From sequence record OR352948.1: a stretch of DNA of 64,000 nucleotides, one strand, 5' to 3'. A model generated the notes under the pieces. That model had not been told where the DNA came from, made no database searches, and saw only the letters and a list, made by a program, of their open reading frames with translations. This DNA comes from Escherichia phage AV118. This document shows, one piece after another, positions 225-14,941 of the stretch; the first letter of the stretch is position 1; every line of letters begins with the position of its first letter. Position numbers and translations under genes: made by a program.

Positions 225-1187
225 TTATTTCCAAGTCAGTTCGCAGGTCAGTTGAAGAAGCATATACATAACATGTAATTCAATATTACTTGCTAATCCA
301 TGAAACTTATTATTTTCGCCTGCAATTTCATAAAGCGAAATAATACTTTTACCTGGTGCAACTTGGTCATAACATTCTGAAACTAATTTATCGATGAACC
401 ATGAATAATCTGCAGCATATTTTGGAGCTAATGCACGAAGTTGTTTGATATCTTTGTTCTTCATTGCTTCTATGACATCATCTACCGTGCCACGGTCATT
501 AGTTACGATAGACAAAATACCCGCATCAAGAACACCTTTAGACGAGTACTGGTCTAATTGACCAATTGTACGACGAAAGTCCGGGAAGTTCTTTTTAACC
601 AGAGCTGCAACAACTTTCATATCAGCGATTTCGATATTTTCGTTCTTACAGATTTCAACCATACGATGAATCATTTTCTTCATCATCGAGATTTTATCTT
701 CTTCGGTTGGACGTCCGAATTCGATAACTCGACAACGACTACGTAACGGTTCGATAATTCCATCGATGTTGTTAGCAGTAATAATAATAGAACAGTTACT
801 AGAGAATTCTTCCATAAACGTACGAAGGTGACGTTGTGATTCGGCGAGGCCACTACGGTCAAATTCATCGATAACGATAACTTTCGGCTTGCCTTCCATT
901 GAGACTGAACGAGCGAATGCAGTTAATGGACCACGCACAAAATCAATCTTACAATCAGAACCGTTGACGAACATCATTTCGGCATTAATATCATTACATA
1001 ATGCTTTTGCTACGGTTGTTTTACCTGTACCAGGAGAAGGAGAGTGTAAAATAATATGAGGAAGTTTTCCTTTAGATACTAAAGACTTGAATGTTTCATG
1101 GTCATACGCAGGCAGAATACATTCGTCAATGGAAGAAGGACGATATTTCTGTTCTAGAATGTGTTCTTTGGAATTGATAGTAATCAT
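225..1187 (-). CDS. 44: Clamp loader ATPase subunit gp44 (RFC-like AAA+)
   Basis: 320 aa; Walker A GTGKTT and Walker B VIVIDEFD; near-identical along its length to recalled T4 gp44 ([17 protein letters not shown]...). Confidence 0.95.
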
Positions 1188-1262
1188 GTAATTTTCCTCA
1201 TTATCATTAAACTGGAGGATTTCTCCTCCATAATCGTATCACAATAAACGTAAAGCTTTGAC

Positions 1263-1949
1263 TTAGAAGTCGTGAGTAGAATCGGCTTCCATCGCAATAA
1301 CATAACTTACTTGAGAGCTTTCAAACTTGGCTGCAACTTTATCACCAGCTCCCCACAACATTACTTTATAGTTACCTGGCTGGATTTTCATATTAGCCAT
1401 ATTGATTACGAAGTTAAAGTTGTTAGAACCATCATAATCGGTAAGAGTCAAAGAATACTTAGGACGAGTTAGTCCTGAATCTTCAACTTTATTATAGCCA
1501 TTGATAACAATTTTACCATCTTTATTTGTAATAGCAATTGTATCAATCTGAAGACCACGTGAAACTCGAAGCAATTGTTGAAGGTCTTCAGCTTTAATTT
1601 CAGTAATCACAGAAGCTACTGGGAATTGAATTGGCTTATTAGGAAAAACAATTGTGCTCTTGTCAGCGGCAGGCCAATAAACTGTGGAACGTGTATCTGC
1701 AATTTTAATATTGCCATCAGTGTGCATTGAAATTTCAGCATCATCAGACACTAGACTCAAAATGCTTAAGAAGCTATTCAAATCATAAAGTGCTACGTCA
1801 AAATCAATTTCATCAGAGATATTTGCTTCCGCATAAGTGGTGCCATTAACTGCACGAGTCATAATAAATTTACCTTGACTCAGCAGAATGCCAGAGTTAA
1901 TAGAAGCGAAGTTTTTCAGAATATTTACGGTTTCACGGCTAAGTTTCAT
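1263..1949 (-). CDS. 45: Sliding clamp gp45
   Basis: 228 aa, same length as T4 gp45 and high identity to it (MKLS...ALEADSTHDF). Confidence 0.95.
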   Translation of the reverse strand: MKLSRETVNILKNFASINSGILLSQGKFIMTRAVNGTTYAEANISDEIDFDVALYDLNSFLSILSLVSDDAEISMHTDGNIKIADTRSTVYWPAADKSTIVFPNKPIQFPVASVITEIKAEDLQQLLRVSRGLQIDTIAITNKDGKIVINGYNKVEDSGLTRPKYSLTLTDYDGSNNFNFVINMANMKIQPGNYKVMLWGAGDKVAAKFESSQVSYVIAMEADSTHDF

Positions 1950-2836
1950 TTAGGTTTCCTATTAGCATAATAATTTGTCCAAGACCGGATAGCACCTTGG
2001 TATGATTCATCATTAAAACCATGCTGAATTGCATGTTTTCTAAATGTAATATAACTTGGTTTTCCTAAAGCAATCCACAATTCCTTTAATTTTTGTTCAT
2101 GAAATATCCATGTACCTCTAGCTTTAGATTTTCTGAATTTATCCTTAAATTCTTTGGTTGCATTTCTTTTCGAAGCTGCGATAGAGGCCTTTGCTCTATT
2201 TTCAGGTTTAGACCAATACAATGTTTTAGATATTTTTATTTTATCTTTAACATTAGGAGAATTCATTATATCTTTAAATTTTAAAGCAAAATCTCTATCG
2301 CTAAACATTTTTTTAGAAAGAATAGAAACTTTCTCTCTTCGTTCTTTGGTCCAATATGTTTTTTGAAATTCTCTAATTGCGTTTAAATGATTCTCCGACA
2401 ATTTGCAATTTTTTCTAACACCGACGTAATCTTCGTTTATTTCGTTTTTAGAAAGTTTTACTATTTTGCCTGTTTTTAAATTTTTATACGGTGCATATCC
2501 TTTAGCTGATATTCTAGACTTCTCGTTAGCATAAGCCTTATTAAAATATTTTTCATTTGAAACGGCTTTAACATTGAGTTGGAATAGTCTTTCTATTCTT
2601 CTAGGGTCTAATGTGGTTTCGCCTAAAATTTTTACAGAATATTCGCCTTGGTCTATTAATCTGGTATATAAAGGAGAATACGAGGAATTAACACTACCGG
2701 TATATATTTTACCGGTAGAATCTTCAATAATATCCTTTCCATTAAAATGACACGAAACTTTAGAACCTATATAATAACACGGGTATTCATTTTTAATCTC
2801 ACGATTATAAAAGGTTATAAGATATATTAAATTCAT
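1946..2836 (-). mobile_element. Free-standing homing-endonuclease-like gene (Seg-like, degenerate GIY-YIG N-terminus, basic C-terminal repeats)
   Basis: N-terminus MNLIYLITF...YYIGSK resembles a GIY...YIG module; lysine/arginine-rich C-terminal half; paralog of the ORF at 13650-14471; inserted between 45 and rpbA; ATG sits 5 nt after the rpbA stop with no own SD. Confidence 0.45.
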
Positions 2837-2841
2837 AATTA

Positions 2842-3258
2842 TCAAGCAGCAACCATCTGCTTTTTAATAGTTTCAGGCAGTGATTCAATATATTCTGGAA
2901 TTTTAGAAGCAACAATTTCGCCAGCTGCAATTAGTTGTTCGTCGGCATCAACACAGTAGGAATCTTCCAGACGCTCAGAACCGTCTTTATCAAGAACGAT
3001 TTTTGCGCCAGCTTCAATAGAATCGTTATAGTGCTTACGCATCAGATGAATCCACATATCAGATACATCGTTATCAATAAAACCATAAATCATAAAACGA
3101 GTTTCTTGTGGCAAAGATTGGAGTTTTTTAGCACTTGCGTCATCACAATGCAGGACCCATGCTTTACGAACACGATTATGGTTATGTGGGTTAGCGTCAG
3201 TACGGATAGAAGTAACTTTCAGATCAGCAGCAGTGAAACCTTTAGCAGTAGTAAACAT
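2842..3258 (-). CDS. rpbA: RNA polymerase-binding protein RpbA-like
   Basis: 138 aa ORF at the syntenic position between 45 and 46; assignment is by position and size only. Confidence 0.5.
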   Translation of the reverse strand: MFTTAKGFTAADLKVTSIRTDANPHNHNRVRKAWVLHCDDASAKKLQSLPQETRFMIYGFIDNDVSDMWIHLMRKHYNDSIEAGAKIVLDKDGSERLEDSYCVDADEQLIAAGEIVASKIPEYIESLPETIKKQMVAA

Positions 3259-3270
3259 ATTATTTCTCTC

Positions 3271-3471
3271 TTATTCGTAGAAGTCGGTAACTGTCCATGC
3301 AGAATTGCGATTAGACATTATTTTATTATACTCGTCTTTAAAAGCAGATTTGAGCATTTGTTCAGTAACAATATGTTCTTCACCTGAAAACGTATTGGTC
3401 AGAACATATTTTTTAATTTCAGGGACAACAAGAAGATGTTGTCCGGTTGAATACTCCATGTTGTTCTCCAT
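3271..3471 (-). CDS. Hypothetical protein (45.2-like position)
   Basis: 66 aa ORF tightly packed between rpbA and 46. Confidence 0.45.
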   Translation of the reverse strand: MENNMEYSTGQHLLVVPEIKKYVLTNTFSGEEHIVTEQMLKSAFKDEYNKIMSNRNSAWTVTDFYE

Positions 3472-3513
3472 TTAATTTGATGTGGTCATTATAACCACAT
3501 CGTGTTAAAGCGT

Positions 3514-5202
3514 TTATGAAACAGTCATTACCGTAAATCGTCCAACTTTGCTCATTTGAAGATGTTGTCCATAAGCTTGTGGGTCATGGTCTCTGTGACT
3601 AATTATAAACACGTTTGCATCGGTTAGAGAGTTAAGAATTGTTGAAATAGCTTTAATACCTTCAGAATCAGTCGCGGAATCCATGACTTCGTCCATAATT
3701 AATGTATTGATTCTAACACCAGAGACCTTTTCAGCAATATCTCGCCATGTAAACAACAACGCGATATCGATACGTGCTTTTTCACCTTGACTAAATGAAG
3801 CATAACTGAACTCTTCACGACCACGTGATTTTATAGATTCATTGAATTCTTCGTCAATAGAAAACACGTAATCAGCTTCCATGATTTTAAGATAATGGTT
3901 AATCTGCTTGTTGAACAGAGGCACATATTTTTTAATGATAGCACCTTTAATACCAGAATCTTTTAACATATCTGTGATAATACCACGATGGTATTTTTCA
4001 AGAACGATATCCGATTTTGTTTTAATGATTTTATCAAGTTCTTTTTGAAGCAAAGCTATCTCATCGGCATGGTCGATAAATTCCGCTGAGGCTTGTTCTA
4101 TTGCAGCTTTAACTTTCTTAGCTTTATCAATAGTGGCAATCATTGCTTGTTTCTTGGTACGAATATCAGATGCAAGGTCCTGTTTAGTCTTAACATTAGC
4201 TCTATATTCGTCCACTAGGACACTCAGATTATCTCTGTGGCAGGTAAGTTGCTCGAATGAGTGATTACATTCATGAAGCTTATCGGTAATCTTAGAGACA
4301 ATAGGATCACCCTGGTGCAACTGTGATGCGCAAGTAGGACATGTACCGCCATCATGATACATCTTAATAACTTTGTTGTATGAGTCAATTTTAGATTTAA
4401 TCAAGAATGCTTCTTGTCCTATCTTGTTGAATGCCTCAGTAGGGTCTTCATCAAGAACGATATTAAGTAGTCGCTCATTAGCTTCTTCGATTTCTGCTTT
4501 TAATGAACGAGCTTCTTTAGCTAGGTCGTCATACATATTCTGTAGACGCGCTACATTATCACCAGATAATTTCTTTTGACGTTCGATATTCTCGTTATAA
4601 ATCTTAATTTGTTGGATAACACCATCTTTCTTGGCATCGAGAACTTGTCCCTGGGAATTAAGTTCTCGAACTTGAGACTTATTGATTTTATCCATTTCAG
4701 CGAGTGTGCCGACTTCTAAAAGGTCTTCGACAAGTTTTCTACGAGCAGGGGTGCTAAGAGCCATGAAAGGGGTATACCCTGCCGTCCCAAGCACAACGAT
4801 CTGTTTAAAAGACGCGTATGACATTCCGATGCTACGTTCAAATTCTTCTTGGAAGTCACGACTGCTGGCAGATTCATCAAGACGAACACCGTCAACGGAG
4901 ATTTCGAAAATATTGGGCTTTTGGCCACGTTTAATGAAGTATTTTTTATCATCGAATTCCATCCAAAGCTCAACTAAGAGCTCTTTCTTGTTCGTGCTAT
5001 TAATGATTTGTCCTTTCTTAACATCACGAAATGGTTTACCGAAAAGTCCGAAAGTAATGGCTTCTAACATCGTAGATTTACCACCGCCATTTTTACCAGT
5101 GATTAATGTCTTTTGAACTTTATCTAATTGGATATCAATAGGATTCCCACCTACCGACATGATGTTTTGATAACGAACACGATTTAATTTAAATGATTTC
5201 AT
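3514..5202 (-). CDS. 46: Recombination endonuclease subunit gp46 (Rad50/SbcC-like ATPase)
   Basis: 562 aa; Walker A GKNGGGKST, central coiled coil with CPTC zinc hook, C-terminal LIMDEV Walker B/D-loop; T4 gp46 size and order. Confidence 0.9.
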   Translation of the reverse strand: MKSFKLNRVRYQNIMSVGGNPIDIQLDKVQKTLITGKNGGGKSTMLEAITFGLFGKPFRDVKKGQIINSTNKKELLVELWMEFDDKKYFIKRGQKPNIFEISVDGVRLDESASSRDFQEEFERSIGMSYASFKQIVVLGTAGYTPFMALSTPARRKLVEDLLEVGTLAEMDKINKSQVRELNSQGQVLDAKKDGVIQQIKIYNENIERQKKLSGDNVARLQNMYDDLAKEARSLKAEIEEANERLLNIVLDEDPTEAFNKIGQEAFLIKSKIDSYNKVIKMYHDGGTCPTCASQLHQGDPIVSKITDKLHECNHSFEQLTCHRDNLSVLVDEYRANVKTKQDLASDIRTKKQAMIATIDKAKKVKAAIEQASAEFIDHADEIALLQKELDKIIKTKSDIVLEKYHRGIITDMLKDSGIKGAIIKKYVPLFNKQINHYLKIMEADYVFSIDEEFNESIKSRGREEFSYASFSQGEKARIDIALLFTWRDIAEKVSGVRINTLIMDEVMDSATDSEGIKAISTILNSLTDANVFIISHRDHDPQAYGQHLQMSKVGRFTVMTVS

Positions 5203-5453
5203 ATGTATTCTCTTCGAATGAAGTCCTCTACATATTTTAACATGTCATCCCTATCAGCAAAATATTCATCTAGTTCTGCATACATAACAACACCTGGTGC
5301 ATACTCACAGGTAACATACATTGTTCCAAAGAAACGAGGAGTTGATTCCTCGTAATTCTCAGTCCATTCAACGATACCAATATAACCGTCACCAATACTA
5401 AATTCATGACGATGGATTTCATAATCAGTCTTCGTCATTATACGCATCCTCAA
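5199..5453 (-). CDS. Hypothetical protein (46.1-like)
   Basis: 84 aa ORF overlapping the 46 start by 4 nt (coupled arrangement). Confidence 0.45.
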   Translation of the reverse strand: MRMRIMTKTDYEIHRHEFSIGDGYIGIVEWTENYEESTPRFFGTMYVTCEYAPGVVMYAELDEYFADRDDMLKYVEDFIRREYI

Positions 5454-5682
5454 TACACGCTTCAGCCATTTTAAGAATAGAGCCAGGAGTATCGTTGTCC
5501 ATTATATTAAAGCTAAATTCAATAGCCCAGTCAGTGCAGACATGAACTGCTTTAACTTCATTGCCTTCAACGCGTAATGGCTCAATCCAATACTTGATAG
5601 TGTTCTCGAATCCATCGTCATCTTTAACGTCCATTTCAACTTCAAGCCTGAGTCCAGCATTGTTAAATTCATCTAAAGTCAT
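5425..5682 (-). CDS. Hypothetical protein (46.2-like)
   Basis: 85 aa acidic ORF between 47 and 46. Confidence 0.45.
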   Translation of the reverse strand: MTLDEFNNAGLRLEVEMDVKDDDGFENTIKYWIEPLRVEGNEVKAVHVCTDWAIEFSFNIMDNDTPGSILKMAEACIEDAYNDED

Positions 5683-6701
5683 TGTGTTGCCTCAATATAA
5701 AGTTCGTTGGAATATTTGACCAGCGCTTCTCTGTCTTCATCTGAGATATCTGGAATCGCGTCAATATATTCTTTAATGATATCTTGAAGTGATTTAATCT
5801 CGATTTCCTGGTCGTCATCAGATTCAACACTGTTATCAACTTTAGAAACCATACGAAGAGAGTGAACTACTTTTTCAAGTTCAGATTCAAACTTAGTCAA
5901 CTCTGAATCAATTTCTGATACTATAACACGTACGGCTAGATTAGTATAATCAGAATAATTGATTTTGCCTTTAAATGGATAAGTGATTCGTCGATGCCAT
6001 GTTGTTTCATTAGGAATAAATTCCATACGTTCAACATCAGTGTCAAATACCCAGAATCCGCGAGGGTCGTTCTCATCACCTGCAGTAAGGGTCCATGGTG
6101 TCCCAATATATTTGACGTTAGCAGCTTCAGAGATTGTGTGGAAGTGGCCAGACCAGACTTGTTTATAGGTCTTTAAGAAATCAGGTTCAAGCCCATGAGA
6201 CTTCATTCCTTTATAGAAATAGAAGCCATTTAATTCCCAGTGCCCAACACAATACGCTGCAGAAGAAGTCTTGATGTGCTCTAAGATTTCACCTGTATTT
6301 TCTTCACACATCCATGGAATCAAATCAATCAAGCACCCATCAAAATCTACTGTAGTTGGCTTATCATAAATTATTACGTTTTTACGATGGCTCAATAATT
6401 CTTGAACAGTGTTAGGATATAAGGTTGTTTTATAAAAGAGATCATGATTCCCAAGTATTGTATGGACTGTTATACCAGCGGCTTCCACCAAATCAAACAT
6501 TTCACGCGTGAATTCCATACAACGTTGTGTGGTGTGGGCTCTGACATCAAATGTATCACCATATTGAATCCATGTTGTTATTCCATTTGCGACGGAATAG
6601 TCGATCATTTGTCTGAAACCGTCACGTTGTATAGCTTGAATCCAATCGTCGTCTTTTTTGACGCCTAGATGCAAATCGCCTATATTAAGTATTTTCATCA
6701 C
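5679..6701 (-). CDS. 47: Recombination nuclease subunit gp47 (Mre11/SbcD-like phosphoesterase)
   Basis: 340 aa; calcineurin-like motifs DLHLG, GDTFD, GNHD, GHWE; T4 gp47 size and order. Confidence 0.9.
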   Translation of the reverse strand: MMKILNIGDLHLGVKKDDDWIQAIQRDGFRQMIDYSVANGITTWIQYGDTFDVRAHTTQRCMEFTREMFDLVEAAGITVHTILGNHDLFYKTTLYPNTVQELLSHRKNVIIYDKPTTVDFDGCLIDLIPWMCEENTGEILEHIKTSSAAYCVGHWELNGFYFYKGMKSHGLEPDFLKTYKQVWSGHFHTISEAANVKYIGTPWTLTAGDENDPRGFWVFDTDVERMEFIPNETTWHRRITYPFKGKINYSDYTNLAVRVIVSEIDSELTKFESELEKVVHSLRMVSKVDNSVESDDDQEIEIKSLQDIIKEYIDAIPDISDEDREALVKYSNELYIEATQ

Positions 6702-7501
6702 ATACCTTTAAATTTGGAGTAAATTATATTGTGGTACGATATATCAGGAAACCCTTTATCGACCGCAATTTTTCTAAACTTATTAGGACTTATTTTACCA
6801 CACTCCATCCATAATGCAAACAACTCGTCAAAATGCTCATATGCTGGACCTCGACGAGCTTTTGACACAGCAGCACTTATGCGAGCCTTTTTCTCAGAAT
6901 CAAGGTTTTTAAGAGAATTACTTATTTTATTTTTTTGCTCTTCTGAATTGAAGGTGCCTTTTTCCCAGCCTAAAGGTTGGCTTCCTTCATGGAACATTTT
7001 TCTTGAAGTTCCATTGGTATACCATATTTTACCTTTATTGTGCCCTGATGCTTTATATTTTGGTGAGCGTCCTTTTATAAATCCTTCAGGTATAGTAGGA
7101 GCAAATGTTTGTTCAAGGGTTTCTGGGTTATACGAATGTATGTTATTTTTGGCGTTATGAGACCCATATAATGGGTGATTTTTACCAGAAACATCACGCC
7201 CAAAGAAACCAGTTGGTGATGCCAAAGACATATTCATATACAAAGGATTTTTATGAGCTTGAACTCTAATTTGATAGTCCTTTTCCACCTTTAAAGCTTC
7301 TTCTCGTGTTGGATGTTCGCTCAAAATACAAGAATCAAACAACGTAGGATTTTCTAAAAGTTCTTTGTTATAAATTTTACGATAGGCTTTAGATAGAATA
7401 GTACCATGATACCCGTTTAAATGTTTTTCTAAGCTAGTCGAACCTATGTAAAAAGGTGGTAGCTTATCTCCAGAATAAATTGTCAAATAGACTATAAACA
7501 T
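6698..7501 (-). mobile_element. Free-standing GIY-YIG-type homing-endonuclease-like gene (Seg-like) with its own terminator, promoter and SD
   Basis: From the internal ATG the product starts MFIVYLTIYSGDKLPPFYIGSTS (GIY...YIG-like) with downstream GKNHPLYG and SGHNKGKIWYTNG DNA-binding-like repeats; strong SD aaggag; lies where T4 carries a-gt. Confidence 0.5.
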
Positions 7502-7525
7502 ATATTTCTCCTTTGATTTAAGGAG

Positions 7526-7555
7526 ATTATAACACGCCTTTAATGAAGCGTAAAC
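7526..7555 (-). promoter_or_regulatory. Sigma70-type promoter for the homing-endonuclease gene
   Basis: Minus strand reads GTTTAC, ~17-18 nt spacer, TGtTATAAT, about 25 nt upstream of the SD. Confidence 0.45.
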
Positions 7556-7583
7556 AAAAAAAGGAAGCACTAGGCTTCCTTTT
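7554..7583 (-). terminator. Rho-independent terminator (palindromic, possibly bidirectional)
   Basis: A-run, ggaagc-actag-gcttcc hairpin, T-run; on the minus strand the hairpin is followed by a U-run. Confidence 0.5.
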
Positions 7584-7646
7584 GATATCGCCTAAGGCTT
7601 ATAGGTCCTTAGAAATCTGGATGTTCATCTTCAACAAAGCTAGTAT

Positions 7647-7847
7647 TCATCGCTGCCACCATTTTTTAAGTTGATGTGAATCTACCCATACCTTCGCTAC
7701 AGGCTCAATATTAAAAATACCATCGGACGTACGTCCAATCATTTTGTATTCGGTTTCAGATTGCTTGATACAAATATCACCATAAGAGCGAAGTCTAAAA
7801 GCGGCTCCTACTAGAAGCCGTTTAAACTTTGTTTGAACTAGCGCCAT
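7647..7847 (-). CDS. Hypothetical protein
   Basis: Small ORF between the homing-endonuclease cassette and 55; internal start chosen to avoid overlap. Confidence 0.3.
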   Translation of the reverse strand: MALVQTKFKRLLVGAAFRLRSYGDICIKQSETEYKMIGRTSDGIFNIEPVAKVWVDSHQLKKWWQR

Positions 7848-8145
7848 TAATGATGTCCTCAATAGCCTGACGAGTAGTAACCCACTGGATTTTAATTAAC
7901 TTGTCATTATATGGTTGTCTTAGAATATCCCGAGATTTCTTAATAGCATATTCGTAAGCTTCGAAGTTGTTTTGAATTGCTGCTTCTTGAGCATGAGCAT
8001 AAAGACGGTTTAGTTCAAAACGATTCTTTTTAAGAATCTTTTCGGATTTTTTACGTGCTTCAGCTTCATTTTTCTTTTGGATTTCTTGTAGCATTTTAGC
8101 TACTGCATCTTCTGCTTCTTTATTTTCAATAATCTCGGTAGTCAT
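7822..8145 (-). CDS. Hypothetical protein
   Basis: 107 aa charged ORF in the T4 a-gt/47.1 interval. Confidence 0.4.
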   Translation of the reverse strand: MTTEIIENKEAEDAVAKMLQEIQKKNEAEARKKSEKILKKNRFELNRLYAHAQEAAIQNNFEAYEYAIKKSRDILRQPYNDKLIKIQWVTTRQAIEDIINGASSNKV

Positions 8146-8146
8146 A

Positions 8147-8356
8147 TTATCTCATTAAATTAAAATAAAAACGTCCGTCCTCTTCAATACAGAACTCATA
8201 CTCAACCGGAGTCCCATTTATCGAAAATAACACGTCATGTGGGTTCAAAGGGTCGATGTCAAAATTAATTTTAAATTCACGACCCAACAGTTTTACCAAA
8301 TAAGGGATTGCTTCGTCAAAAGGTTCTTCTAAGTAGTTAGAGATGTCAATTGTCAT
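8147..8356 (-). CDS. Hypothetical protein (47.1-like position)
   Basis: ORF immediately downstream of 55; start set at the internal MTIDIS Met to clear the 55 coding region. Confidence 0.35.
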
Positions 8357-8903
8357 CCTCATATAAAAAATCCAAACTAGGCGAATCGCTAACAACTTCC
8401 TTCTTTTCAGCCCCAGGAGCTTTATAAGCGGATTCTTCATAATGCGTCATTTTATCGTAGATGTCTTGAATAAACGTTTCATCTACCAACGCTACCATAT
8501 CATCGTCATGACTGTCGTAGACATTATGAACGAAGTAACTATATTTCTTTGCAACTTCCTTACGTTCTTTTTTGATACGTTGGACAAAAGCATTAAAACA
8601 AGCTCGAGTTATGTATGCATGTGGGTTATTGTACTTAGTTTCGTCGAAATTATGAAGTCCCTTAATAGAGGCTTCAATCCCATCTGCAATCATCTCCTGC
8701 TTCCAAGACTGGGTATATCCTGAAAAGTTGAAACGTTTGGACAGGCCTTCGGCGATAAGCATAATTGCTAAACCGATGGTATCATTCTGACGAATAATTT
8801 TGTTTGGGTCTTTATTATTTAAGAGCTCCTTTTTCCACTCGATTATAGCGGCGAGAAGCTCTTTATTATTCACATAGTTATTTTTAGGTTTTTGTTCAGT
8901 CAT
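8346..8903 (-). CDS. 55: Late-transcription sigma factor gp55
   Basis: From the MTEQKPK start it is 185 aa and near-identical to recalled T4 gp55 (NYVNNKELL...DFLYE); SD gagg upstream. Confidence 0.9.
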
Positions 8904-8924
8904 AAGTACCTCTTGGCTCAATTC

Positions 8925-8960
8925 ATAGGTCTATTATATCATAATATTTAGAGACCTATC
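8925..8960 (-). promoter_or_regulatory. Promoter/stem-loop cassette upstream of gene 55
   Basis: Inverted repeat ataggtct / agacctat bracketing a TGaTATAAT extended -10 on the minus strand. Confidence 0.4.
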
Positions 8961-9058
8961 TTAAAGCACGAGATACTATCAAAGATACGTAACTTTCATA
9001 AAGTTGTCGACTTAAAATTCACCAAACTTTTCTTCGGTTATAGCGATTCAAGATAGTT

Positions 9059-9286
9059 TCATTCTATTTCCTTTGCTGCAAATAAGGCAGCATCCAACGA
9101 ATCAAATTGGTCAACAAAATCAATATTTAACGCATCGTCAACCGTAGCATATAACCACCATTGTTTGAATTCATATTCAAGAATAAATCCAGGCCCTTCA
9201 ATCTGAGGAAGACCTAGGCTATTTGTACCAACTTCGTAACCAGCTAGACGGAGGTCATTAATCAAAGTTTCTGTTAATACGCTCAT
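9059..9286 (-). CDS. Hypothetical protein (55.x block)
   Basis: 75 aa acidic ORF. Confidence 0.45.
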   Translation of the reverse strand: MSVLTETLINDLRLAGYEVGTNSLGLPQIEGPGFILEYEFKQWWLYATVDDALNIDFVDQFDSLDAALFAAKEIE

Positions 9287-9615
9287 TTTACCGCCTTAAC
9301 AATTTTCAAGTCAACGAATTTTTTCTTACGTTGATTTTTCATACGACGGATAGTCTTTTCAGAGATTTCATGTTTCTGATAAGCTTTAGATTCAACACCA
9401 AATGCAGCAACGTCAAATTCAGAAAGAATATATTGTACTAGAATTTCACGAATAGAATTACGTCCAATTTTCTGGTCGTGTTTTTGCATGATTTCATAAA
9501 GACGGAATTCCCACGCGTCAAGAACTTGAGGAGTAACAATATTGCCGGATTCCAGAAGAGCAACAACTTTATCGAAAGCGAAAGAATTAACTACGTTTTT
9601 GATTTTAGTAGACAT
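9283..9615 (-). CDS. Hypothetical protein (55.x block)
   Basis: ORF with SD gaggaaa before the MSTKIKN start; directly downstream of the 48-bp promoter repeat. Confidence 0.5.
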   Translation of the reverse strand: MSTKIKNVVNSFAFDKVVALLESGNIVTPQVLDAWEFRLYEIMQKHDQKIGRNSIREILVQYILSEFDVAAFGVESKAYQKHEISEKTIRRMKNQRKKKFVDLKIVKAVK

Positions 9616-9634
9616 ATTATTTTCCTCGGTTATT

Positions 9635-9682
9635 TTATTATCCAATGAGAGCATTATACTCTGCTCTCAAGAGTTTGTAAAT
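9635..9682 (-). promoter_or_regulatory. Strong early-type promoter, copy 1 of a 48-bp perfect repeat
   Basis: Minus strand: TTTACA, 17 nt, TATAAT; the -10 sits in the loop of a gagagc/gctctc inverted repeat; identical 48-mer at 38307-38354. Confidence 0.6.
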
Positions 9683-9684
9683 CG

Positions 9685-9885
9685 TTATCCGAACTTTTTA
9701 GCGCCTTTCCAGCCTTCGTACATAACTGCACAAGTCAGTAGTACAGCATGCTGGCATTCTTTGTATTTGTAAATCCAGAACCAGCGTAAGAAGTCTTCAT
9801 CCTCAACGCCGTTGAGTTTCATATTGGCAAAGAATTCGGCACGTTCTTCACGAAGCTTTTGCGATAACATAGATTCAGGATTCAT
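9685..9885 (-). CDS. Hypothetical protein
   Basis: 66 aa ORF. Confidence 0.4.
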   Translation of the reverse strand: MNPESMLSQKLREERAEFFANMKLNGVEDEDFLRWFWIYKYKECQHAVLLTCAVMYEGWKGAKKFG

Positions 9886-10016
9886 TTTGTGTTCCAGGCC
9901 CCATTTTCATCGATGAACTTAATCCAGTCATTTACAGACCATTTAGTTGTATCGCCCTTTGGATTAACATTTAAAGTATATAATCCCTGCTTAAAAAGCA
10001 TTCGTTTGATATTCAT
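9882..10016 (-). CDS. Hypothetical small protein
   Basis: Internal start MNIKRML preceded by SD gaggaaa. Confidence 0.3.
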   Translation of the reverse strand: MNIKRMLFKQGLYTLNVNPKGDTTKWSVNDWIKFIDENGAWNTK

Positions 10017-10023
10017 AATTTCC

Positions 10024-10317
10024 TCAACTGTAACGATAACATTCGTTAGCTTTACGTTTGGCTTCAGTATGAGAAGTATTATAATCATAATCTTCTTTAC
10101 TGTAAACATCTTTTTTCAACTTACGAACTTCTTTGCGGAGTTGTCGATTCATTTCATTCTTGACTTCAGAATCAACGCCTTTCATACGTTTCCATTTATC
10201 TGAGCGGAAGATGTTTTCAACCATGTCTTTGTGGCTAACACCGTCAGGAGCTTTACGCTTACCAAAATAGTCGTAATCGCGAACTTTCAAATCTTTACGA
10301 CGATATGTTTTACCCAT
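10024..10317 (-). CDS. Hypothetical basic protein
   Basis: Lysine/arginine-rich ORF; SD gagg before the MGKTYRR start. Confidence 0.4.
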   Translation of the reverse strand: MGKTYRRKDLKVRDYDYFGKRKAPDGVSHKDMVENIFRSDKWKRMKGVDSEVKNEMNRQLRKEVRKLKKDVYSKEDYDYNTSHTEAKRKANECYRYS

Positions 10318-10324
10318 AAGTACC

Positions 10325-10612
10325 TCAGAGGTTGATTGATACAATGCGTTTGATAAAATTCACTTCACTTACTGAAAGGTCTTTAAGACCGATTGATTCT
10401 AAACGCTGAGTAAGCGTCAACATCGTGATATAGTCCCATTGTGTTTTAGACGTTTGATAAGTACGGACGCCATTAGCAATTTCAACATGCAAATCGGAAA
10501 TGGTAACGAATACCGGTCGCTCGTCATTAACTTTAAGGGTTAGAACAACTTTCTTTGAATCTAAACTAATCATTTTATTTTCCTCTGTGGTAGATGGTGT
10601 TAATCTTAACAT
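10325..10612 (-). CDS. Hypothetical protein
   Basis: 95 aa ORF. Confidence 0.45.
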   Translation of the reverse strand: MLRLTPSTTEENKMISLDSKKVVLTLKVNDERPVFVTISDLHVEIANGVRTYQTSKTQWDYITMLTLTQRLESIGLKDLSVSEVNFIKRIVSINL

Positions 10613-10740
10613 ATCTATCGAGGATGTAAACTGTTTTATGAAAATATTTTTTGATTTGAGAGGGGCACAAGGAGATAGTGAAGTGAAGATTCCAATGGAT
10701 TATATTAGAAATGAGATAAAGAAGACCAGGCGGCACCTGG

Positions 10741-11049
10741 TCAATCTTCTATGATATCAGAGTCATATCCTAATGAAATCAAGGACTTTTTAAACTCTGC
10801 AATATTCTTTTGTTTCTTATCATTTAAAAATATGACAGGATAACGAATATTAAGTGAAGTGAATCCTGCACGTTTAGCAAGAGATACGATTAAAGGACGG
10901 TCATATTCAATCTTACCATTATTAGTGAGGACTTTATAAAATGTATAAGGAGCATTGAGCTCCTTTAAAAGTTTTGTAACAGTATAACATCCTGGACAAC
11001 GTCCAACTTCTTCAGGGATGCCATAAATTTCAATCTTGTTGTGTTCCAC
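10741..11049 (-). CDS. nrdH: Glutaredoxin-like protein NrdH
   Basis: 102 aa with CPGC redox motif; adjacent to nrdG/nrdD as in T4. Confidence 0.7.
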   Translation of the reverse strand: MEHNKIEIYGIPEEVGRCPGCYTVTKLLKELNAPYTFYKVLTNNGKIEYDRPLIVSLAKRAGFTSLNIRYPVIFLNDKKQKNIAEFKKSLISLGYDSDIIED

Positions 11050-11051
11050 AA

Positions 11052-11264
11052 TTATTCCTTGCCAAGAACAGAATTCAGTTTATTAGTAATTTTGTCCAAA
11101 CGTTCATTGAATTCGCTGGAGGATAAACCCTTTTCCGGAGAAATTAAACTAATCACGAAAAATACAACAGTAAAAGGAATAAGAAAAATAGCTCCAACTG
11201 CCATAAATGAAAAGAACGTTACAGTTGTAAGAAAATCAGCTAAACCTTTACGAAATTTATACAT
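11052..11264 (-). CDS. Small membrane protein
   Basis: 70 aa with one hydrophobic helix (LTTVTFFSFMAVGAIFLIPFTVVFFVISL). Confidence 0.45.
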   Translation of the reverse strand: MYKFRKGLADFLTTVTFFSFMAVGAIFLIPFTVVFFVISLISPEKGLSSSEFNERLDKITNKLNSVLGKE

Positions 11265-11374
11265 ATTTGCCCTTAATTAACTAAGCATTGATAAGCACTA
11301 AACTATATTGCGAATAAAATTCTGGACCAAAACGAAAAATCATATCATTTATAGTATCCATAATGTAATTCAAT

Positions 11375-11845
11375 TTAATCATGTTTCCACACCCCATCGG
11401 TATTTGACCAAAGTCGCTGATTATCTGATCCTCGCCACAGCTTTTTAGTCGGAAGATTTTTCTCATACTTCCCATCAATAATAACATCAACATATTTAAG
11501 CATTTCTAGTTGTTTAATATCTTCAAAATTATATCCTGTCCACAACCAAATGCTTTTATTGGGATAAAGATTTTTAATAGTTTGAACCACAGAGTGAATC
11601 ACATCTCTGTTATCAGGATAGAGAGGGTCACCTCCGGTTATAGTCAATCCTTCTATATAATCATTATTCAAACATTCAATTAATTGTTCTAGTGTTTCAC
11701 CAGTGAATGGAATACCATTTCTAGCATTCCATGTTGATTTATTATAACACCCTTCGCATTTATGCAAACAACCCGTAACGAAAAGAACGACCCTGCAACC
11801 AGGGCCATTCACAAAATCGCAAGGATAAAATCTATCATAATTCAT
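11375..11845 (-). CDS. nrdG: Anaerobic ribonucleotide reductase activating protein NrdG (radical SAM)
   Basis: 156 aa with CxxxCxxC cluster (CLHKCEGC); same size as T4 NrdG. Confidence 0.9.
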   Translation of the reverse strand: MNYDRFYPCDFVNGPGCRVVLFVTGCLHKCEGCYNKSTWNARNGIPFTGETLEQLIECLNNDYIEGLTITGGDPLYPDNRDVIHSVVQTIKNLYPNKSIWLWTGYNFEDIKQLEMLKYVDVIIDGKYEKNLPTKKLWRGSDNQRLWSNTDGVWKHD

Positions 11846-13659
11846 TGGTGTTTAACCCTATGCATGATTTCTTTATTTTTACCGAGATTAAATCCGCGTT
11901 CGTTCGGATTTCCCAAATAACCGCATGTTCTTCTTATGGTGTTCATCTTTTTAGGATCAGTTTCTCCACAGATAGAACAAACAAATCCGTTTTCAGTAGG
12001 AGTCATTTCATGGGTACTTCCACATGTAAAACATTTATCTACTGGCATATTAACACCAAAATAATCTAAATGTTGTGCAGCATAATCCCACACGGCCTCA
12101 AGTCCTTTTAAGTTATTTTTCATATCAGGAAGTTCAACATAAGAAATGTGACCACCTGTCGCAATGAAATGATATGGCGCTTCACGAGAAATCTTTTCAA
12201 ACGGAGTAATATTTTCTTCTACTGAAACGTGGAAACTGTTAGTGTACCAGCCTTTATCGGTAACATCTTTTACACTTCCATATTTTTCTGTATCGAGTTT
12301 ACAGAAGCGATAACAAAGGTTTTCAGCAGGAGTCGAATATAAACTAAAAGCAAATCCAGTTCTTTCGGTCCACTGCTTAAGATGAGCATTCATTTTAGTT
12401 AAAATTTCTTGCCCAATATCACGACCGACAAGAATATTCAATTCGTGAATACCAATGTATCCTAAAGACACTGAACTTCTACCGTTTTTAAATAACTCAA
12501 TTATGTCGTCATCAGGTTTAAGACGAACCCCGAATGCACCTTCTTGGTAAAGAATAGGAGCTACAGTTGCTTTAACACCCTTTAAAGAACTAATTCTACA
12601 CATCAAGGCTTCAAAACACAGATCCATTCGTTCATTGAATAATTCAACAAATTTCTGTTCATTGAACTGTGTTCCAATATAAGAATCTAATGCGATACGA
12701 GGAAGATTCAGTGTTACAACGCCGAGATTATTACGACCGTCAAGAATTTCATTTCCAGTTGAATCTTTCCATACGCTCAAGAAACTACGGCAACCCATCG
12801 GAGAAACTGGAACTGAAGAACCGGTAATAGCTTTATTATTCTTAACTGAAATAATGTCAGGATACATTCTTTTGCTTGCACATTCTAACGCAAGTTGTTT
12901 AATATCATAGTTTGGATCATCTTTATAAAGATTAACACCTTCTTCAAAAAACATAACAAGCTTAGGGAAAATAGGAGTTATTCCATCACGTCCAAGGCCT
13001 TTAATGCGGTTTTTAAGAATTGCCTTCTGAATCATTCGTTCAGTCCAGTCAGTTCCTGTACCAAATGTAATTGTTACAAAAGGTGTTTGTCCGTTTGAAC
13101 TAAAGAGAGTATTTACTTCATATTCATAAGCTTGGAATGCATCGTATACATCTTTTTCTGTTTTAGATTGAGCATAATTCAACGCATCAGCGATTTGCCA
13201 TTTTTCTGCATCCTCAATATGTTTTGCATAGGTGCGTTTAACATAAGGAGAAAGTACTTTATCTACATTAGCAAAAGTCGTTCCGCCGTATTGATGGGAA
13301 GCAACCTGTGCAGTAATTTGTGCCATAATTGCAGTAGCAACACCGATTGATTTAGGAGTTTCAATCTGTGCATTACCAAGCTTAAATCCATTCTCAAGCA
13401 TTCCTTTTAAATCTACTAAACAGCAATTAGTAAAAGGCAATGATATACTGTAATCTAAATCGTGAAAATGAATTAATCCGACATTATGAGCATTTACAAT
13501 ATGGCTCGGAAGAATACTACAAGCGATATGTTTAGAAACAATACCGGCCATTAAATCTCTTTTTGTTGGAAAGACACGAGAATCTTTGTTGGCATTTTCG
13601 GTATTTAATTCTTTATCTTTATTTGAAATAAAATTTAAAACATCTTTCTCTAAAGACAT
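11842..13659 (-). CDS. nrdD: Anaerobic ribonucleoside-triphosphate reductase NrdD
   Basis: 605 aa, C-terminal zinc ribbon (CFTCGS...CSICG) and glycyl-radical tail (RTCGYLG); uninterrupted, no intron. Confidence 0.95.
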   Translation of the reverse strand: MSLEKDVLNFISNKDKELNTENANKDSRVFPTKRDLMAGIVSKHIACSILPSHIVNAHNVGLIHFHDLDYSISLPFTNCCLVDLKGMLENGFKLGNAQIETPKSIGVATAIMAQITAQVASHQYGGTTFANVDKVLSPYVKRTYAKHIEDAEKWQIADALNYAQSKTEKDVYDAFQAYEYEVNTLFSSNGQTPFVTITFGTGTDWTERMIQKAILKNRIKGLGRDGITPIFPKLVMFFEEGVNLYKDDPNYDIKQLALECASKRMYPDIISVKNNKAITGSSVPVSPMGCRSFLSVWKDSTGNEILDGRNNLGVVTLNLPRIALDSYIGTQFNEQKFVELFNERMDLCFEALMCRISSLKGVKATVAPILYQEGAFGVRLKPDDDIIELFKNGRSSVSLGYIGIHELNILVGRDIGQEILTKMNAHLKQWTERTGFAFSLYSTPAENLCYRFCKLDTEKYGSVKDVTDKGWYTNSFHVSVEENITPFEKISREAPYHFIATGGHISYVELPDMKNNLKGLEAVWDYAAQHLDYFGVNMPVDKCFTCGSTHEMTPTENGFVCSICGETDPKKMNTIRRTCGYLGNPNERGFNLGKNKEIMHRVKHQ

Positions 13660-14471
13660 AATTCTAATTTATCCTTTTGAAATTCTTCGTCTAAATATGG
13701 GTTCCAACCCATTTTAAACCTTTTGATGAAATTATCAATTCTAAATTTCGGTAAATTTAACTCCGCAAAAATAGATGATTTACTTTTAAAATCTGGACCT
13801 AAATAATCATATAAAATTTCTGCGTATTTTAACCATAATATATAAGTACCAGATTTAATTGCTCTAGGAGTTTTCCAAGGTTTTACGCCGTACATCGGAT
13901 TTCCACTTCCTTTATGCCTGATAGAAGATGAAATTCCAATTTTAATTTTAGCTTCCTTTGTGTGCGAAAATCCATGATGTGGATTTTCTTTCCAGTATTT
14001 TTTAGAAGCTTCTGATATTTTCTTTCTGGCTAAATTAGTATGATGCTTTCCATAAAATCCATGATTTTTACCTTTATTACGATTTCTTTTAATCATGGTT
14101 ATTGATTGCTTTTCTCTAGTTTCTTTAGAAGGAGAAACACCGTACGTTGTAAATTGACCATTAGCATATGCTAAATTAAAATACTCTTTATTCCATATAT
14201 CTTTTTCTATATTCTTTTGAAATTCAGCTTCAATGCTAGTTATTTGTTCATCTCCGACTAATTGAAAATATAATATTTCAACTTTCGGTGTTTCTTTCAA
14301 CAGAGCTTTTTGAAATTCGGAAGATGACGAAGACGAATAATAAAATTTACCATTTTTATCAATAATATTCGTTCCGTCAAAAGTGCAATTGGTTTTACTT
14401 CCAATATAATAATATGGCGGGGTTTTAGCATTAATTCTACTAATAAATGATAGTTTATATACTACATTCAT
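13650..14471 (-). mobile_element. Free-standing homing-endonuclease-like gene (Seg-like), paralog of 1946-2836
   Basis: N-terminus VYKLSFI...YYYIGSK, shared EYFNLAYAN segment, C-terminal repeats GKHHTNLARKKIS and HGFSHTKEAKIKIG; ATG abuts the gene 49 stop (TGAATG); inserted between 49 and nrdD. Confidence 0.45.
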
Positions 14472-14941
14472 TTTAAACTCTTTCTAAGCTGCTTCTTAAA
14501 TGAAGCTATTAATTGTGTTTTGGTGTCAGATTCATTATATTCAAATCCTCTTTGAAGCATCTCGGCCATCATTTCCTCTTTTCCTAAACGAGAAAATTCC
14601 TTTGATTTATCTCCAACGAAGTTAGGGTGAATATTATTTTGGGTGTAATCGGATTTTAAATAAGTAAGTAAATTTTCTAACCATTCAAGATAATCAACGC
14701 CTTGTCCCTTTAAACCAGAGCGATTAAATTTATGTTTCATTTGACCTTCTGCAGCATTGCAGAGATTACAAAGCAATCCACGTACCTTTCCTGCTTTTGG
14801 TCCATTTAATTCATGGTCATGATCGAGGTGATTAGCTTGAACATCAGGATTTAGTTCTCGTTGGCAAATTAAGCATTTACCGTTTTGTGCATCATAAAAT
14901 TTCTGTTTTTCTTCTTTATATAATTTGCCAGTCAATAACAT
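14468..14941 (-). CDS. 49: Endonuclease VII (Holliday junction resolvase) gp49
   Basis: 157 aa, same length as T4 endo VII; Cys/His zinc site (CLICQ...HLDHDHE...CNLCN). Confidence 0.9.
   Translation of the reverse strand: MLLTGKLYKEEKQKFYDAQNGKCLICQRELNPDVQANHLDHDHELNGPKAGKVRGLLCNLCNAAEGQMKHKFNRSGLKGQGVDYLEWLENLLTYLKSDYTQNNIHPNFVGDKSKEFSRLGKEEMMAEMLQRGFEYNESDTKTQLIASFKKQLRKSLK

Follow-up and report, generated by a model that had tools for sequence, protein, structure and literature searches.

Three intact GIY-YIG-type genes upstream of genes 45, 47 and nrdD in Escherichia phage AV118 are probably Seg-group homing endonuclease genes spread by intronless homing

The free-standing homing endonucleases of bacteriophage T4 are encoded between conserved genes, in many cases by a gene that lacks a promoter and relies on translational coupling. 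They cut hundreds of base pairs away from the gene that encodes them and bring about co-conversion (PMC2988022). The GIY-YIG enzyme SegG (gene 32.1), which is encoded between genes 59 and 32 and targets gene 32, is the closest relative of the three proteins described here. I-TevI, the endonuclease of the T4 td intron and the structural prototype of the GIY-YIG homing endonucleases, is a two-part protein that cuts within ~25 bp of its insertion site. Some relatives of T4 reportedly carry, in place of mobC between nrdG and nrdD, the gene for SegH, a free-standing GIY-YIG endonuclease that is the subject of a SegH/Hef paper. The T-even free-standing endonucleases preferentially target ribonucleotide reductase genes, with nrdD and nrdG targeted by seg and mob enzymes (PMC2988022).

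The window analysed here, 64,000 nucleotides of Escherichia phage AV118 (OR352948.1), a T4-like coliphage of the genus Mosigvirus, contains within positions 1,263-14,471 three intact GIY-YIG-type ORFs, all on the minus strand and each directly upstream of a gene essential for replication, recombination or nucleotide synthesis. A first-pass annotation had described these as homing-endonuclease-like genes inserted between conserved core genes, and both its coordinates and its gene order agree with the ORF positions and with comparison to HX01 and T4:

1263-1949: gene 45, downstream neighbour of ORF1
1946-2836, minus strand: ORF1, SegG-like GIY-YIG homing endonuclease gene, 296 aa, intact, between rpbA and gene 45
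2842-3258, minus-strand context of ORF1: rpbA
5679-6698: gene 47, downstream neighbour of ORF2
6698-7501, minus strand: ORF2, GIY-YIG homing endonuclease gene, 267 aa, intact, directly upstream of gene 47; the C-terminal domain is helix-turn-helix-like
11842-13659, minus strand: nrdD, 605 aa, an uninterrupted single ORF
13650-14471, minus strand: ORF3, SegG-like GIY-YIG and NUMOD3 homing endonuclease gene, 273 aa, intact, between gene 49 and nrdD
14468-14941: gene 49, upstream neighbour of ORF3

In addition to this position immediately upstream of an essential gene, the three ORFs share with SegG a homologous N-terminal nuclease domain (ORF1, 36% identity over 138 aa, E 4e-14; ORF2, 31% over 120 aa, E 1e-6; ORF3, 40% over 128 aa, E 6e-26) and the unusual motif pattern MNxVY...R...PPYYYIGSK...Y.SS...E...YFN.A. 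ORF1 also matches PHROG 7504, 'homing endonuclease' (E 2e-16), and contains all of the family-conserved residues (Y5, R12, YYIGSK, E83 and YFN); in fact, every family-conserved catalytic position is retained in the three ORFs, and both protein families do conserve the GIY...YIG-like N-terminal motifs. The presence of catalytic residues in a profile alignment, set beforehand as a test, was found with hhalign for both families. The ORF2-family N-terminus matches an alignment of I-TevI and SegA-E (probability 96%, E 1.5e-9), with YIG on YVG, E73 on E75 and N90 on N90 of I-TevI, the ORF1/ORF3 family matches the same alignment over its Glu/Asn half (92%), and the two families match each other (99%). 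Equivalents of I-TevI Glu75 and Asn90 are conserved, unlike Arg27, which falls in an alignment gap and has no counterpart in the ORFs. The similarity to the I-TevI catalytic domain is too low for detection by Pfam or PDB sequence searches with the ORFs, the Pfam GIY-YIG match being below threshold in ORF2 and not found in ORF1 or ORF3.

PHROG 10820, which ORF2 matches at E 2.5e-75, is named 'HNH endonuclease', and the GenBank annotation of the LF82-4 and Lutter relatives agrees. That these proteins are HNH enzymes is nonetheless scarcely credible, since neither ORF2 nor any of 34 aligned relatives has an HNH Pfam match, 10 of the 34 match Pfam GIY-YIG and one matches SegE_GIY-YIG, T4 MobB and MobC give no significant match, and the ORF2 fold matches the I-TevI GIY-YIG domain, as in the hhalign result above. 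The HNH label looks wrong.

The C-terminal regions, in which the first-pass annotation saw basic DNA-binding repeats, appear to differ among the three proteins and are unrelated to that of SegG. The description holds for ORF3, in which NUMOD3 scores 33.1 bits (cut-off 20.4), resembling the NUMOD3-type element of I-TevI, and whose family profile matches the I-TevI DNA-binding domain; the match is sub-threshold in ORF2 (15.8 bits), and ORF1 has no Pfam match there. ORF2 has helix-turn-helix-like matches, and the last ~50 aa of ORF1 resemble the C-termini of ORF2 and SegA (to SegA, E 1e-4 for ORF1 and 3e-5 for ORF2), so that ORF3 would use NUMOD3 helices, and ORF2 and probably ORF1 a helix-turn-helix-like element. 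Likewise, the suggestion that ORF1 and ORF3 are clear paralogs stands for the N-terminal 110-130 aa (28% identity, E 7e-13), both being SegG-like, and fails for the C-terminal halves, which are unrelated; paralogy thus appears confined to the nuclease domain. The ORFs evolve under purifying selection, with dN/dS of 0.12-0.27 over whole proteins, nuclease and DNA-binding parts included (0.25 for ORF1 against its Tequatrovirus homologue), and they contain no internal stops. GC content is lower in ORF1 and ORF3 (for ORF1, 27-28% versus 35-38% in its flanks).

Like SegF, SegA, SegE and MobE, the three ORFs lie between conserved genes in their neighbours' orientation, with starts that overlap the upstream gene or are coupled to it. 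Unlike for these enzymes and SegG, the insertion sites are rpbA/45, a-gt.2/47 and 49/nrdD and the presumed targets 45, 47 and nrdD, and the ORFs are known from sequence; unlike I-TevI, they are free-standing. ORF3 resembles SegH, compared by description only, in being a free-standing GIY-YIG gene associated with anaerobic ribonucleotide reductase genes and, at nrdD, accords with the T-even target preference. SegH, however, is placed at the other end of nrdD, and the nrdG/nrdD junction of AV118 is empty, nrdG overlapping the nrdD stop. As first noted, ORF1 and ORF3 lack a Shine-Dalgarno sequence (SD) and begin at the upstream stop, the ORF1 ATG 5 nt after the rpbA TGA and the ORF3 ATG overlapping the gene 49 TGA as ATGA. 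The ORF3 ATG occupies the place of the nrdD start codon in insert-free phages, the 3' end of gene 49 being identical as far as AAAATGA whether or not a phage carries the insert, and the new nrdD ATG (13659) sits 10 nt inside the ORF3 3' end. The ORF2 stop overlaps the gene 47 ATG (TGATG). The nrdD gene is, as claimed, intron-free: one 605-aa ORF aligns with both T4 exons flanking the I-TevII intron site, and no Rfam family was found in 1-16000, and hence no group I intron there. ORF2 had been called a cassette with its own terminator, promoter and SD, and a hairpin with T-run, a promoter-like site and a GGAG SD were indeed located. The junction features are:

1946-1975, minus strand: gene 45 SD (AGGAAA) inside the ORF1 3' end, with the ORF1 TGA overlapping the gene 45 ATG (ATGA)
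7507-7526, minus strand: RNA hairpin UCUCCUU/AAGGAGA over the ORF2 SD, 7 bp, -8.6 kcal/mol, z -3.2
7526-7554, minus strand: promoter-like site TTTACG-17-TGtTATAAT, 10/12 matches, TG before the -10 hexamer
7559-7583, minus strand: intrinsic terminator that precedes the ORF2 promoter, a stem of 10 bp with a T-run, -12.1 kcal/mol
7599-7628, minus strand: remnant of an a-gt.2-like (DUF5486) gene, a 9-codon ORF, from alignment with HX01 and LF82-4
14468-14471, minus strand: ATGA overlap of ORF3 start and gene 49 stop, from sequence and alignment

The arrangement at the start of gene 45 is found likewise in VR26 and SHBML-50-1. Upstream of ORF2, the terminator (7583-7559) shows, by alignment, no sequence relationship to the one that HX01 and LF82-4 have in the corresponding position, and only the first ~20 nt of the a-gt.2-like gene are still recognisable, the remainder being replaced by the cassette. 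In appearance the ORF2 promoter resembles sigma-70 or MotA promoters rather than late ones, and it would be of the early or middle class; CGCTTCA, which precedes the -10 hexamer by 12 nt, differs from the MotA box consensus by one mismatch. The 7-bp hairpin (7526-7507), which the first-pass annotation did not mention, is predicted to sequester the GGAG SD, like the RBS-sequestering hairpins described for segB and Aeh1 mobE. None of the endonuclease-specific promoters of T4 is of the early type, according to a review (PMC2988022).

Each insert is linked to a divergent 5' end of the downstream gene:

1925-1949, minus strand: start of gene 45 (~25 nt), recoded where ORF1 is present, from comparison with HX01, T4 and Lutter
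6320-6697, minus strand: start of gene 47 (~360-380 nt), foreign and ORF2-linked, from identity to HX01
7647-7815, minus strand: divergent a-gt.3-like gene body, upstream edge of the ORF2-carrying foreign segment, from BLAST and protein comparison
13424-13659, minus strand: first ~236 nt of nrdD, ORF3-linked haplotype, from shared-site comparison

Gene 45 is 57-67% identical to HX01 in its first 30-45 nt versus 98-100% over the remainder, and gene 47 60-73% in its 5' tract (dS ~1.9, amino acid identity 61%) versus 98-100% from ~nt 420 onward, with the same boundary in LF82-4, a carrier of an ORF2 homologue. In the nrdD tract, AV118 shares its allele with fPS-2 (ORF3-carrying) and HX01 with T4 (both without ORF3), each pair spanning two genera. 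The tracts in genes 45, 47 and nrdD are candidate target positions or regions in insert-free genomes, that of gene 47 being a candidate co-conversion tract.

That the divergent 5' ends reflect ordinary homologous recombination among distant T4-like phages, with the endonuclease genes as passengers, not the cause, is very unlikely. T-even genomes are mosaic, and the nrdD-49 locus is so even between AV118 and the near-identical AV115 (identical over 1000-12000, strongly different over 12500-14983, ~19% in gene 49), so that ordinary recombination could account for some flank divergence; the 49-pin region of AV118 is closer to T4 (97.9%) than to HX01 (92%), and the foreign segment around ORF2 also takes in the a-gt.3-like gene, BLAST alignment to HX01 and LF82-4 resuming only at 7815. 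Against this, all three tracts adjoin an endonuclease gene and end sharply within 25-380 nt, the other ~12 kb being 98-100% identical to HX01. The gene 45 tract alters exactly the sequence ATGAAACTGTCTAAAGATAC, which is common to insert-free HX01, T4 and Lutter and from which all three insert-carrying alleles (AV118, SHBML-50-1, VR26) depart. The nrdD allele tracks ORF3 presence, not genus, at 74/74 informative sites, compared with 0 such sites in the rest of the nrdD 5' exon region and at most one per 60-nt bin in gene 49 and upstream; its haplotype is at least 95% conserved in 49 records, and only with ORF3, versus 60-80% in the other 985.

The ORFs are not fixed at the same positions in all relatives. 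HX01, of the same genus, and T4 lack all three; ORF3 is present in 51 phages (~7% of sites) and its junction empty in 632 records, the rpbA/45 junction is occupied by an ORF1-type gene in 37 records (9 + 28) and empty in ~240, and exact ORF2 occurs in only 4 database records. Lutter, LF82-4 and two metagenomic contigs have ORF2-related genes upstream of gene 47; the 207-aa gene of Lutter adjoins a gene 47 5' end that is nevertheless 92-100% identical to insert-free T4, and a divergent flank is therefore not obligatory for the ORF2 family. Signs of mobility, judged from sequence comparison, are present in the cross-genus identity of ORF3 (97%) and the sharply bounded foreign tracts linked to the inserts, ORF3 and the nrdD tract being 96-97% identical between Mosigvirus and Tequatrovirus. 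Together with the catalytic residues, this patchiness supports the free-standing homing endonuclease interpretation.

It is improbable that the genes are intact but immobile, as relics or domesticated seg-like genes kept for their start overlaps with 45, 47 and nrdD or for another role, such as the competitor phage exclusion or local amplification recently reported as a non-homing role of SegB (PMC13096335). The ORF 3' ends do overlap the SD or start codon of essential downstream genes, so that deletion should be disfavoured; the Arg27 counterpart was not found in the alignment; and the ORF1 lineage may be decaying, the AV115 copy being frameshifted and the annotation split in JM17, FL18 and G2285 (apparent frameshifts). 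ORF1-type genes are also old across two genera (59% amino acid identity, dS ~1.5), which suggests long residence, not recent spread. However, the low dN/dS across whole proteins is unexpected for a mere spacer, the catalytic positions are all retained, SegG, which shares the motif pattern, is listed as active (PMC2988022, Table 1), and the 96-100% identity of ORF3 in two genera at so few occupied sites fits a still-spreading element.

The likeliest route of spread would be intronless homing, as described for SegF and SegG. In mixed infection with a gene-free relative, the enzyme would cleave the allele that has no insert, at a site within or close to the 5' end of 45, 47 or nrdD; the break would be resected and then repaired from the endonuclease-carrying genome, with the gene and the stretch up to the break copied in together, which would account for the foreign or recoded start of the gene downstream of each insert. 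The enzyme presumably cuts its own carrier allele poorly. ORF1 and ORF3 lack promoters of their own, and their translation is probably weak and coupled to that of rpbA and gene 49; ORF2 would be transcribed from its own promoter, the hairpin masking its SD in read-through transcripts. With the cleavage activity, target positions, expression timing and present-day mobility that we infer for them, the three ORFs are probably free-standing Seg-group GIY-YIG homing endonuclease genes, active or recently active, that spread by intronless homing and co-conversion. The inserts represent no new phenomenon; they are a clean case of a known one.

The first 16,000 nt of the window (1-16000) find their best matches in AV115, AV114 and AV109, at 98-99% identity over 94% of the query, and show an affinity with the Mosigvirus (RB69-like T-even) coliphages; with lower coverage, matches extend to about 1000 Straboviridae records. 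The minus strand holds every gene in this region, and the three endonuclease-like genes lie exactly where the first-pass annotation had placed them:

1946-2836, minus strand: ORF1, 296 aa, between rpbA and gene 45
6698-7501, minus strand: ORF2, 267 aa, upstream of gene 47
13650-14471, minus strand: ORF3, 273 aa, between gene 49 and nrdD
1-16000, minus strand, gene order: 44, 45, ORF1, rpbA, 45.2, 46, 46.1, 46.2, 47, ORF2, a-gt.3/4/5-like, 55
1-16000, minus strand, gene order continued: ... nrdH, nrdG, nrdD, ORF3, 49, pin

The three sites (rpbA/45, a-gt.2/47 and 49/nrdD) fall between conserved genes and outside any intron or intein. As had been claimed, nrdD is itself intron-free: the gene is uninterrupted, and an Rfam scan of 1-16000 returned no intron and no other RNA family. 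The GC content of ORF1 and ORF3 is 27-30% versus 35-38% for the flanks, that of ORF2 not being lowered. Among all ORFs of at least 70 aa in the 64-kb window, searches with hmmsearch and phmmer, using the profiles of the ORF1/ORF3 and ORF2 families together with the T4 Seg, MobB, MobC and I-Tev proteins, found no endonuclease genes other than ORF1-3.

The GIY-YIG-like N-termini first noticed in these proteins are present in all three (LIY...YYIGS in ORF1, IVY...FYIGS in ORF2 and VVY...YYIGS in ORF3), with a GIY-to-YIG spacing of about 10-12 residues and with Tyr and Gly positions that are invariant or nearly so in both family alignments. In structure models, the two motifs fall on strands 1 and 2 of a GIY-YIG alpha/beta fold. 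The ORF1/ORF3 family further conserves Y5, R12, YYIGSK, Y44, S47, E81 and YFN99, with E81 and N99 invariant, and the ORF2 family conserves Y5, Y18-I-G-S, GYxGS, E73 and N90, with E73 and N90 invariant. The catalytic Glu (E83 in ORF1, E73 in ORF2, E81 in ORF3) and the structural Asn are also in place, as the conserved Glu and Asn of both families land on E75 and N90 of I-TevI in hhalign profile alignments. These alignments worked only against a combined I-TevI and SegA-E alignment (probability 96% for the ORF2 family and 92% for the ORF1/ORF3 family), a single I-TevI sequence giving no match (probability 2%); aligned with each other, the two families give a probability of 99%. No Arg is conserved at the place of I-TevI R27 in either family alignment, and the R27 region corresponds to a 9-residue gap in the ORF2-family alignment. 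At other positions, basic residues are conserved: the ORF1/ORF3 family has R12 and K26, the ORF2 family K38 and R66. T4 SegG shows this pattern too.

The Pfam GIY-YIG model (PF01541) scores ORF2 at 17.8 bits, under its cut-off of 22.6, and gives no match for ORF1 or ORF3; at E<=0.01 it recovers 10 of 34 ORF2 relatives and 0 of 21 ORF1/ORF3 relatives. Such sub-threshold scores measure the reach of the model and do not exclude GIY-YIG membership. The DNA-binding repeats proposed for the C-termini fared unevenly, in that the NUMOD3 model PF07460 detects them in ORF3 (33.1 bits versus a cut-off of 20.4, in two stretches), falls below cut-off in ORF2 (15.8 bits) and has no match in ORF1. At its C-terminus, ORF2 is similar to DNA-binding domains of the helix-turn-helix and winged-helix types. 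In a search of PDB sequences, the ORF1/ORF3 family profile matched the DNA-binding domain of I-TevI and did not find its catalytic domain, and ORF2 alone gave no meaningful match.

Compared with the T4 endonucleases (sequences from NC_000866), the N-terminal ~130 aa of ORF3 and ORF1 are SegG-like (40% identity, E 6e-26, and 36% identity, E 4e-14, respectively), and ORF2 shows a more distant likeness to SegG, SegE and SegA. The PHROG assignment of ORF1 and ORF3 is 7504 ('homing endonuclease'), and that of ORF2 is 10820. The latter carries the label 'HNH endonuclease', as do GenBank XUQ12143.1 and YP_010071805.1, from the carrier phages LF82-4 (segment positions 2479-3294) and Lutter (segment positions 6995-7618). 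An HNH identity for ORF2 is not supported: no HNH Pfam match is found in ORF2 or its 34 relatives, predicted fold and profiles are those of GIY-YIG, and ORF2 has no significant similarity to T4 MobB or MobC. By these comparisons, the HNH label on the ORF2 relatives is probably a propagated annotation error. The dN/dS ratios of the endonuclease genes (0.12-0.27) indicate purifying selection.

In agreement with the first-pass annotation, in its interpretation as well as its observations, the sequence evidence supports placing ORF1-3, as new members, in the SegG-like Seg group of GIY-YIG homing endonucleases, which are encoded by free-standing genes. They occupy three insertion sites left empty by T4, and their pattern matches the intronless homing pattern of the T4 seg genes. 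In the literature searched, no endonuclease at rpbA/45, upstream of 47 or at 49/nrdD was found to have been named or assayed.

The inserts are not fixed among relatives, all three being absent from HX01, a phage of the same genus, and from T4; AV109 and AV114, by contrast, have all three. At the empty sites of HX01, 42 bp separate rpbA and 45, an a-gt.2-like gene precedes 47, and 49 overlaps nrdD directly. ORF1 is found at >=99% identity in 9 records, and a 66%-identical version occupies the same rpbA/45 site in 28 others (the two checked are a Tequatrovirus and a Gaprivervirus); about 240 records have an intact, empty junction. ORF2 is found in 4 records, LF82-4 having a counterpart of 66% identity in the same position, and its nuclease half alone is common to about 90 other records. 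In the only one of these examined, Lutter, the ORF2-type protein has 207 aa and is encoded directly before gene 47; two relatives from metagenomes (55% and 63% aa identity) are likewise fused to the gene 47 start. ORF3 is present at 96-100% identity in 51 records from both Mosigvirus and Tequatrovirus, including the Tequatrovirus phages fPS-2 and Lutter, versus 632 records with an empty 49/nrdD junction, and in fPS-2 it stands alongside the I-TevII intron. Presence at each locus is sporadic, and the cross-genus identity of ORF3 points to transfer between lineages.

Several copies of ORF1 are disrupted. In the near-identical relative AV115 (3446-4340, corresponding to window 1946-2836), four extra nucleotides (TTTT, at window position 2307) split the gene, which is annotated as two hypothetical proteins; the copies in JM17, FL18, G2285 and AV111 have 1-nt length differences, and those in JM17, FL18 and G2285 are annotated as split. 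The disrupted copies suggest pseudogenisation or homopolymer sequencing errors, the split copies being signs of decay. Between the window and AV115, most 250-nt bins of 1000-12000 have 0 mismatches, with 6 in 2250-2499 (within ORF1) and few elsewhere. Around ORF3 (12500-14983), mismatches per 250 nt rise: parts of nrdD have 11-21, ORF3 has 8-10 and gene 49 has 41-52 (about 19%). Among near-identical phages, two ORF3 alleles that differ in their flanks are therefore in circulation. Further endonuclease genes occur nearby in other phages: between 46 and 46.1 in Lutter (segment positions 4700-5554), and downstream of nrdD in fPS-2, where I-TevII is accompanied by another such gene (segment positions 1-61 and 1451-2227). 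Across T-even phages, endonuclease genes are densely clustered in the region from nrdD to 46.

Outside the inserts, the window and HX01 are 95-100% identical in most 60-nt bins of the stretches profiled (genes 44-47, nrdG-nrdD and gene 49), and three low-identity tracts stand out, each adjoining an insert on its downstream side and comprising the 5' end of the next gene. In gene 45, the first ~25 nt (ATGAAACTGTCTAAAGATAC) are exactly common to HX01, T4 and Lutter, and all three carrier alleles differ. In gene 47, the first ~360 nt are 60-73% identical to HX01, and LF82-4 has the same boundary. In nrdD, 74 sites within the first ~236 nt follow the presence of ORF3 in a 2 x 2 comparison that crosses presence or absence of ORF3 with genus (Mosigvirus or Tequatrovirus); elsewhere, the 5' part of nrdD has 0 such linked sites, and no 60-nt bin of gene 49 or farther upstream has more than 1. 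Identity to this nrdD 5' haplotype is >=95% in 49 records, whereas 985 records show 60-80%. Since the tracts have a dS of about 2 and an aa identity of 61-65%, they are truly foreign rather than merely recoded. Indirectly and by comparison, the sharply bounded flank haplotypes point to probable co-conversion with the endonuclease genes. The flank of the Lutter ORF2-type gene, in gene 47, is not divergent versus T4.

Upstream of ORF2, the foreign segment extends to 7815 and holds divergent a-gt.3-like and truncated a-gt.2-like genes. The a-gt.2-like (DUF5486) remnant at 7599-7628 aligns with HX01 and LF82-4 over its first ~20 nt only and leaves a 9-codon ORF; the ORF2 cassette has taken the place of the body of this gene and of its terminator. 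Against a single mobile block, or 'HEG island', spanning the 12.5 kb from ORF1 to ORF3 stands the 98-100% HX01-like DNA that separates the inserts, and this idea was therefore rejected.

At the nrdD-49 locus, mosaicism shows even when the window is compared with AV115. Identity to T4 is 94.5% in the 3' part of nrdD (11825-13121) and 97.9% over 49-pin-49.1 (14468-15920), versus about 73% for the neighbouring core genes 44, 45, 46 and 47; HX01, although of the same genus, is less similar to the window in the 49-pin region (92%) than T4 is. This similarity points to a possible cross-genus exchange hot spot. A further local mosaic patch is 14948-15250 (the 49/pin intergenic stretch and first part of pin), 63-83% identical in HX01 and matched by T4 and fPS-2; no endonuclease gene adjoins it in the window.

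The cleavage sites of T4 seg enzymes are hundreds of bp away from the enzymes' own genes, and the intervening DNA is always co-converted (PMC2988022). On this precedent, the predicted targets of ORF1-3 fall inside, or a short way past, the divergent tracts of insert-free alleles, and carrier alleles would resist cleavage.

The claim that ORF1 lacks an SD and starts right after rpbA holds, its ATG (2836) lying 5 nt past the rpbA TGA; at its other end, the ORF1 stop codon (TGA) and the gene 45 ATG overlap, and the last ORF1 codons contain the gene 45 SD. At 2820-2848 (minus strand), TGCTTGA, one mismatch from the MotA box consensus, was read by eye at the rpbA stop, followed 12 nt on by TAATAT within the first ORF1 codons; if this were a gene 45 middle promoter, transcripts would begin after the ORF1 ATG. 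Within the 5' part of ORF1 (2694-2718, minus strand), a perfect 9-bp inverted repeat, CTACCGGTA...TACCGGTAG, was flagged as terminator-like; mobE and segF have internal terminators near their 5' ends (PMC2988022). ORF3 likewise starts at the gene 49 stop, which its ATG overlaps as ATGA, and the nrdD ATG lies 10 nt inside its 3' end. A dedicated promoter for ORF1 or ORF3 was rejected because sigma-70 scans around both gave no more sites than chance; no exact match to the T4 late promoter (TATAAATA) occurs within 1-16000. Both genes have the look of cassettes that have no promoter of their own and rely on translational coupling, a listed class (PMC2988022).

ORF2 does carry the terminator (7583-7559), promoter-like site (7554-7526; TTTACG-17-TGtTATAAT) and GGAG SD ascribed to it, and its stop overlaps the gene 47 ATG. 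The putative promoter appears sigma-70-like, with a near-MotA box. The SD is base-paired within a hairpin of 7 bp (7526-7507, -8.6 kcal/mol, z -3.2). A transcript from the ORF2 promoter would start inside the 5' arm of this hairpin, so that only transcripts from this promoter would expose the SD; we infer these expression features, as those of ORF1 and ORF3, from the signals themselves. Such exposure is much like that of the I-Tev enzymes, segB and Aeh1 mobE, which, however, use late promoters. Directly upstream of the ORF2 terminator (7601-7622, minus strand), a small inverted repeat (CTAAGG...CCTTAG) forms part of a larger structure in a 106-nt fold (-32.3 kcal/mol, z -4.65).

A wider reading, which we regard as rather unlikely, is that each element is a two-part module of gene, resistant target allele and captured translation start, hard to delete and self-immune. 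The ORF3 module would then comprise the 822-nt gene and the 236-nt nrdD tract, recently swept near-unchanged across two phage genera, and among free-standing endonuclease genes of T-even phages, ORF2 would be the first with its own early/middle promoter and SD-masking hairpin. The 2010 review gives as a rule that endonuclease-specific promoters are never of the early class (PMC2988022), and an early/middle promoter of ORF2, if true, would depart from this rule. Further on this reading, should the enzymes cut the translation-start regions of rivals' 45, 47 and nrdD, the result would be intergenus marker exclusion of core replication and recombination genes.

For a specialist, ORF1-3 hold no surprise; they are a good textbook case with testable target predictions, the sharp-ended flank haplotypes predicting the cut positions of the three enzymes. 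Free-standing homing endonucleases are a chief source of mosaicism and marker exclusion among T-even phages, and to our knowledge characterisation has so far covered the T4 set and few others. The inserts provide test cases for target specificity when one nuclease domain joins different DNA-binding domains, for the reach of co-conversion, and for the transfer of core replication gene segments between Mosigvirus and Tequatrovirus. Therapeutic cocktails mixing these two genera could swap the insert segments.
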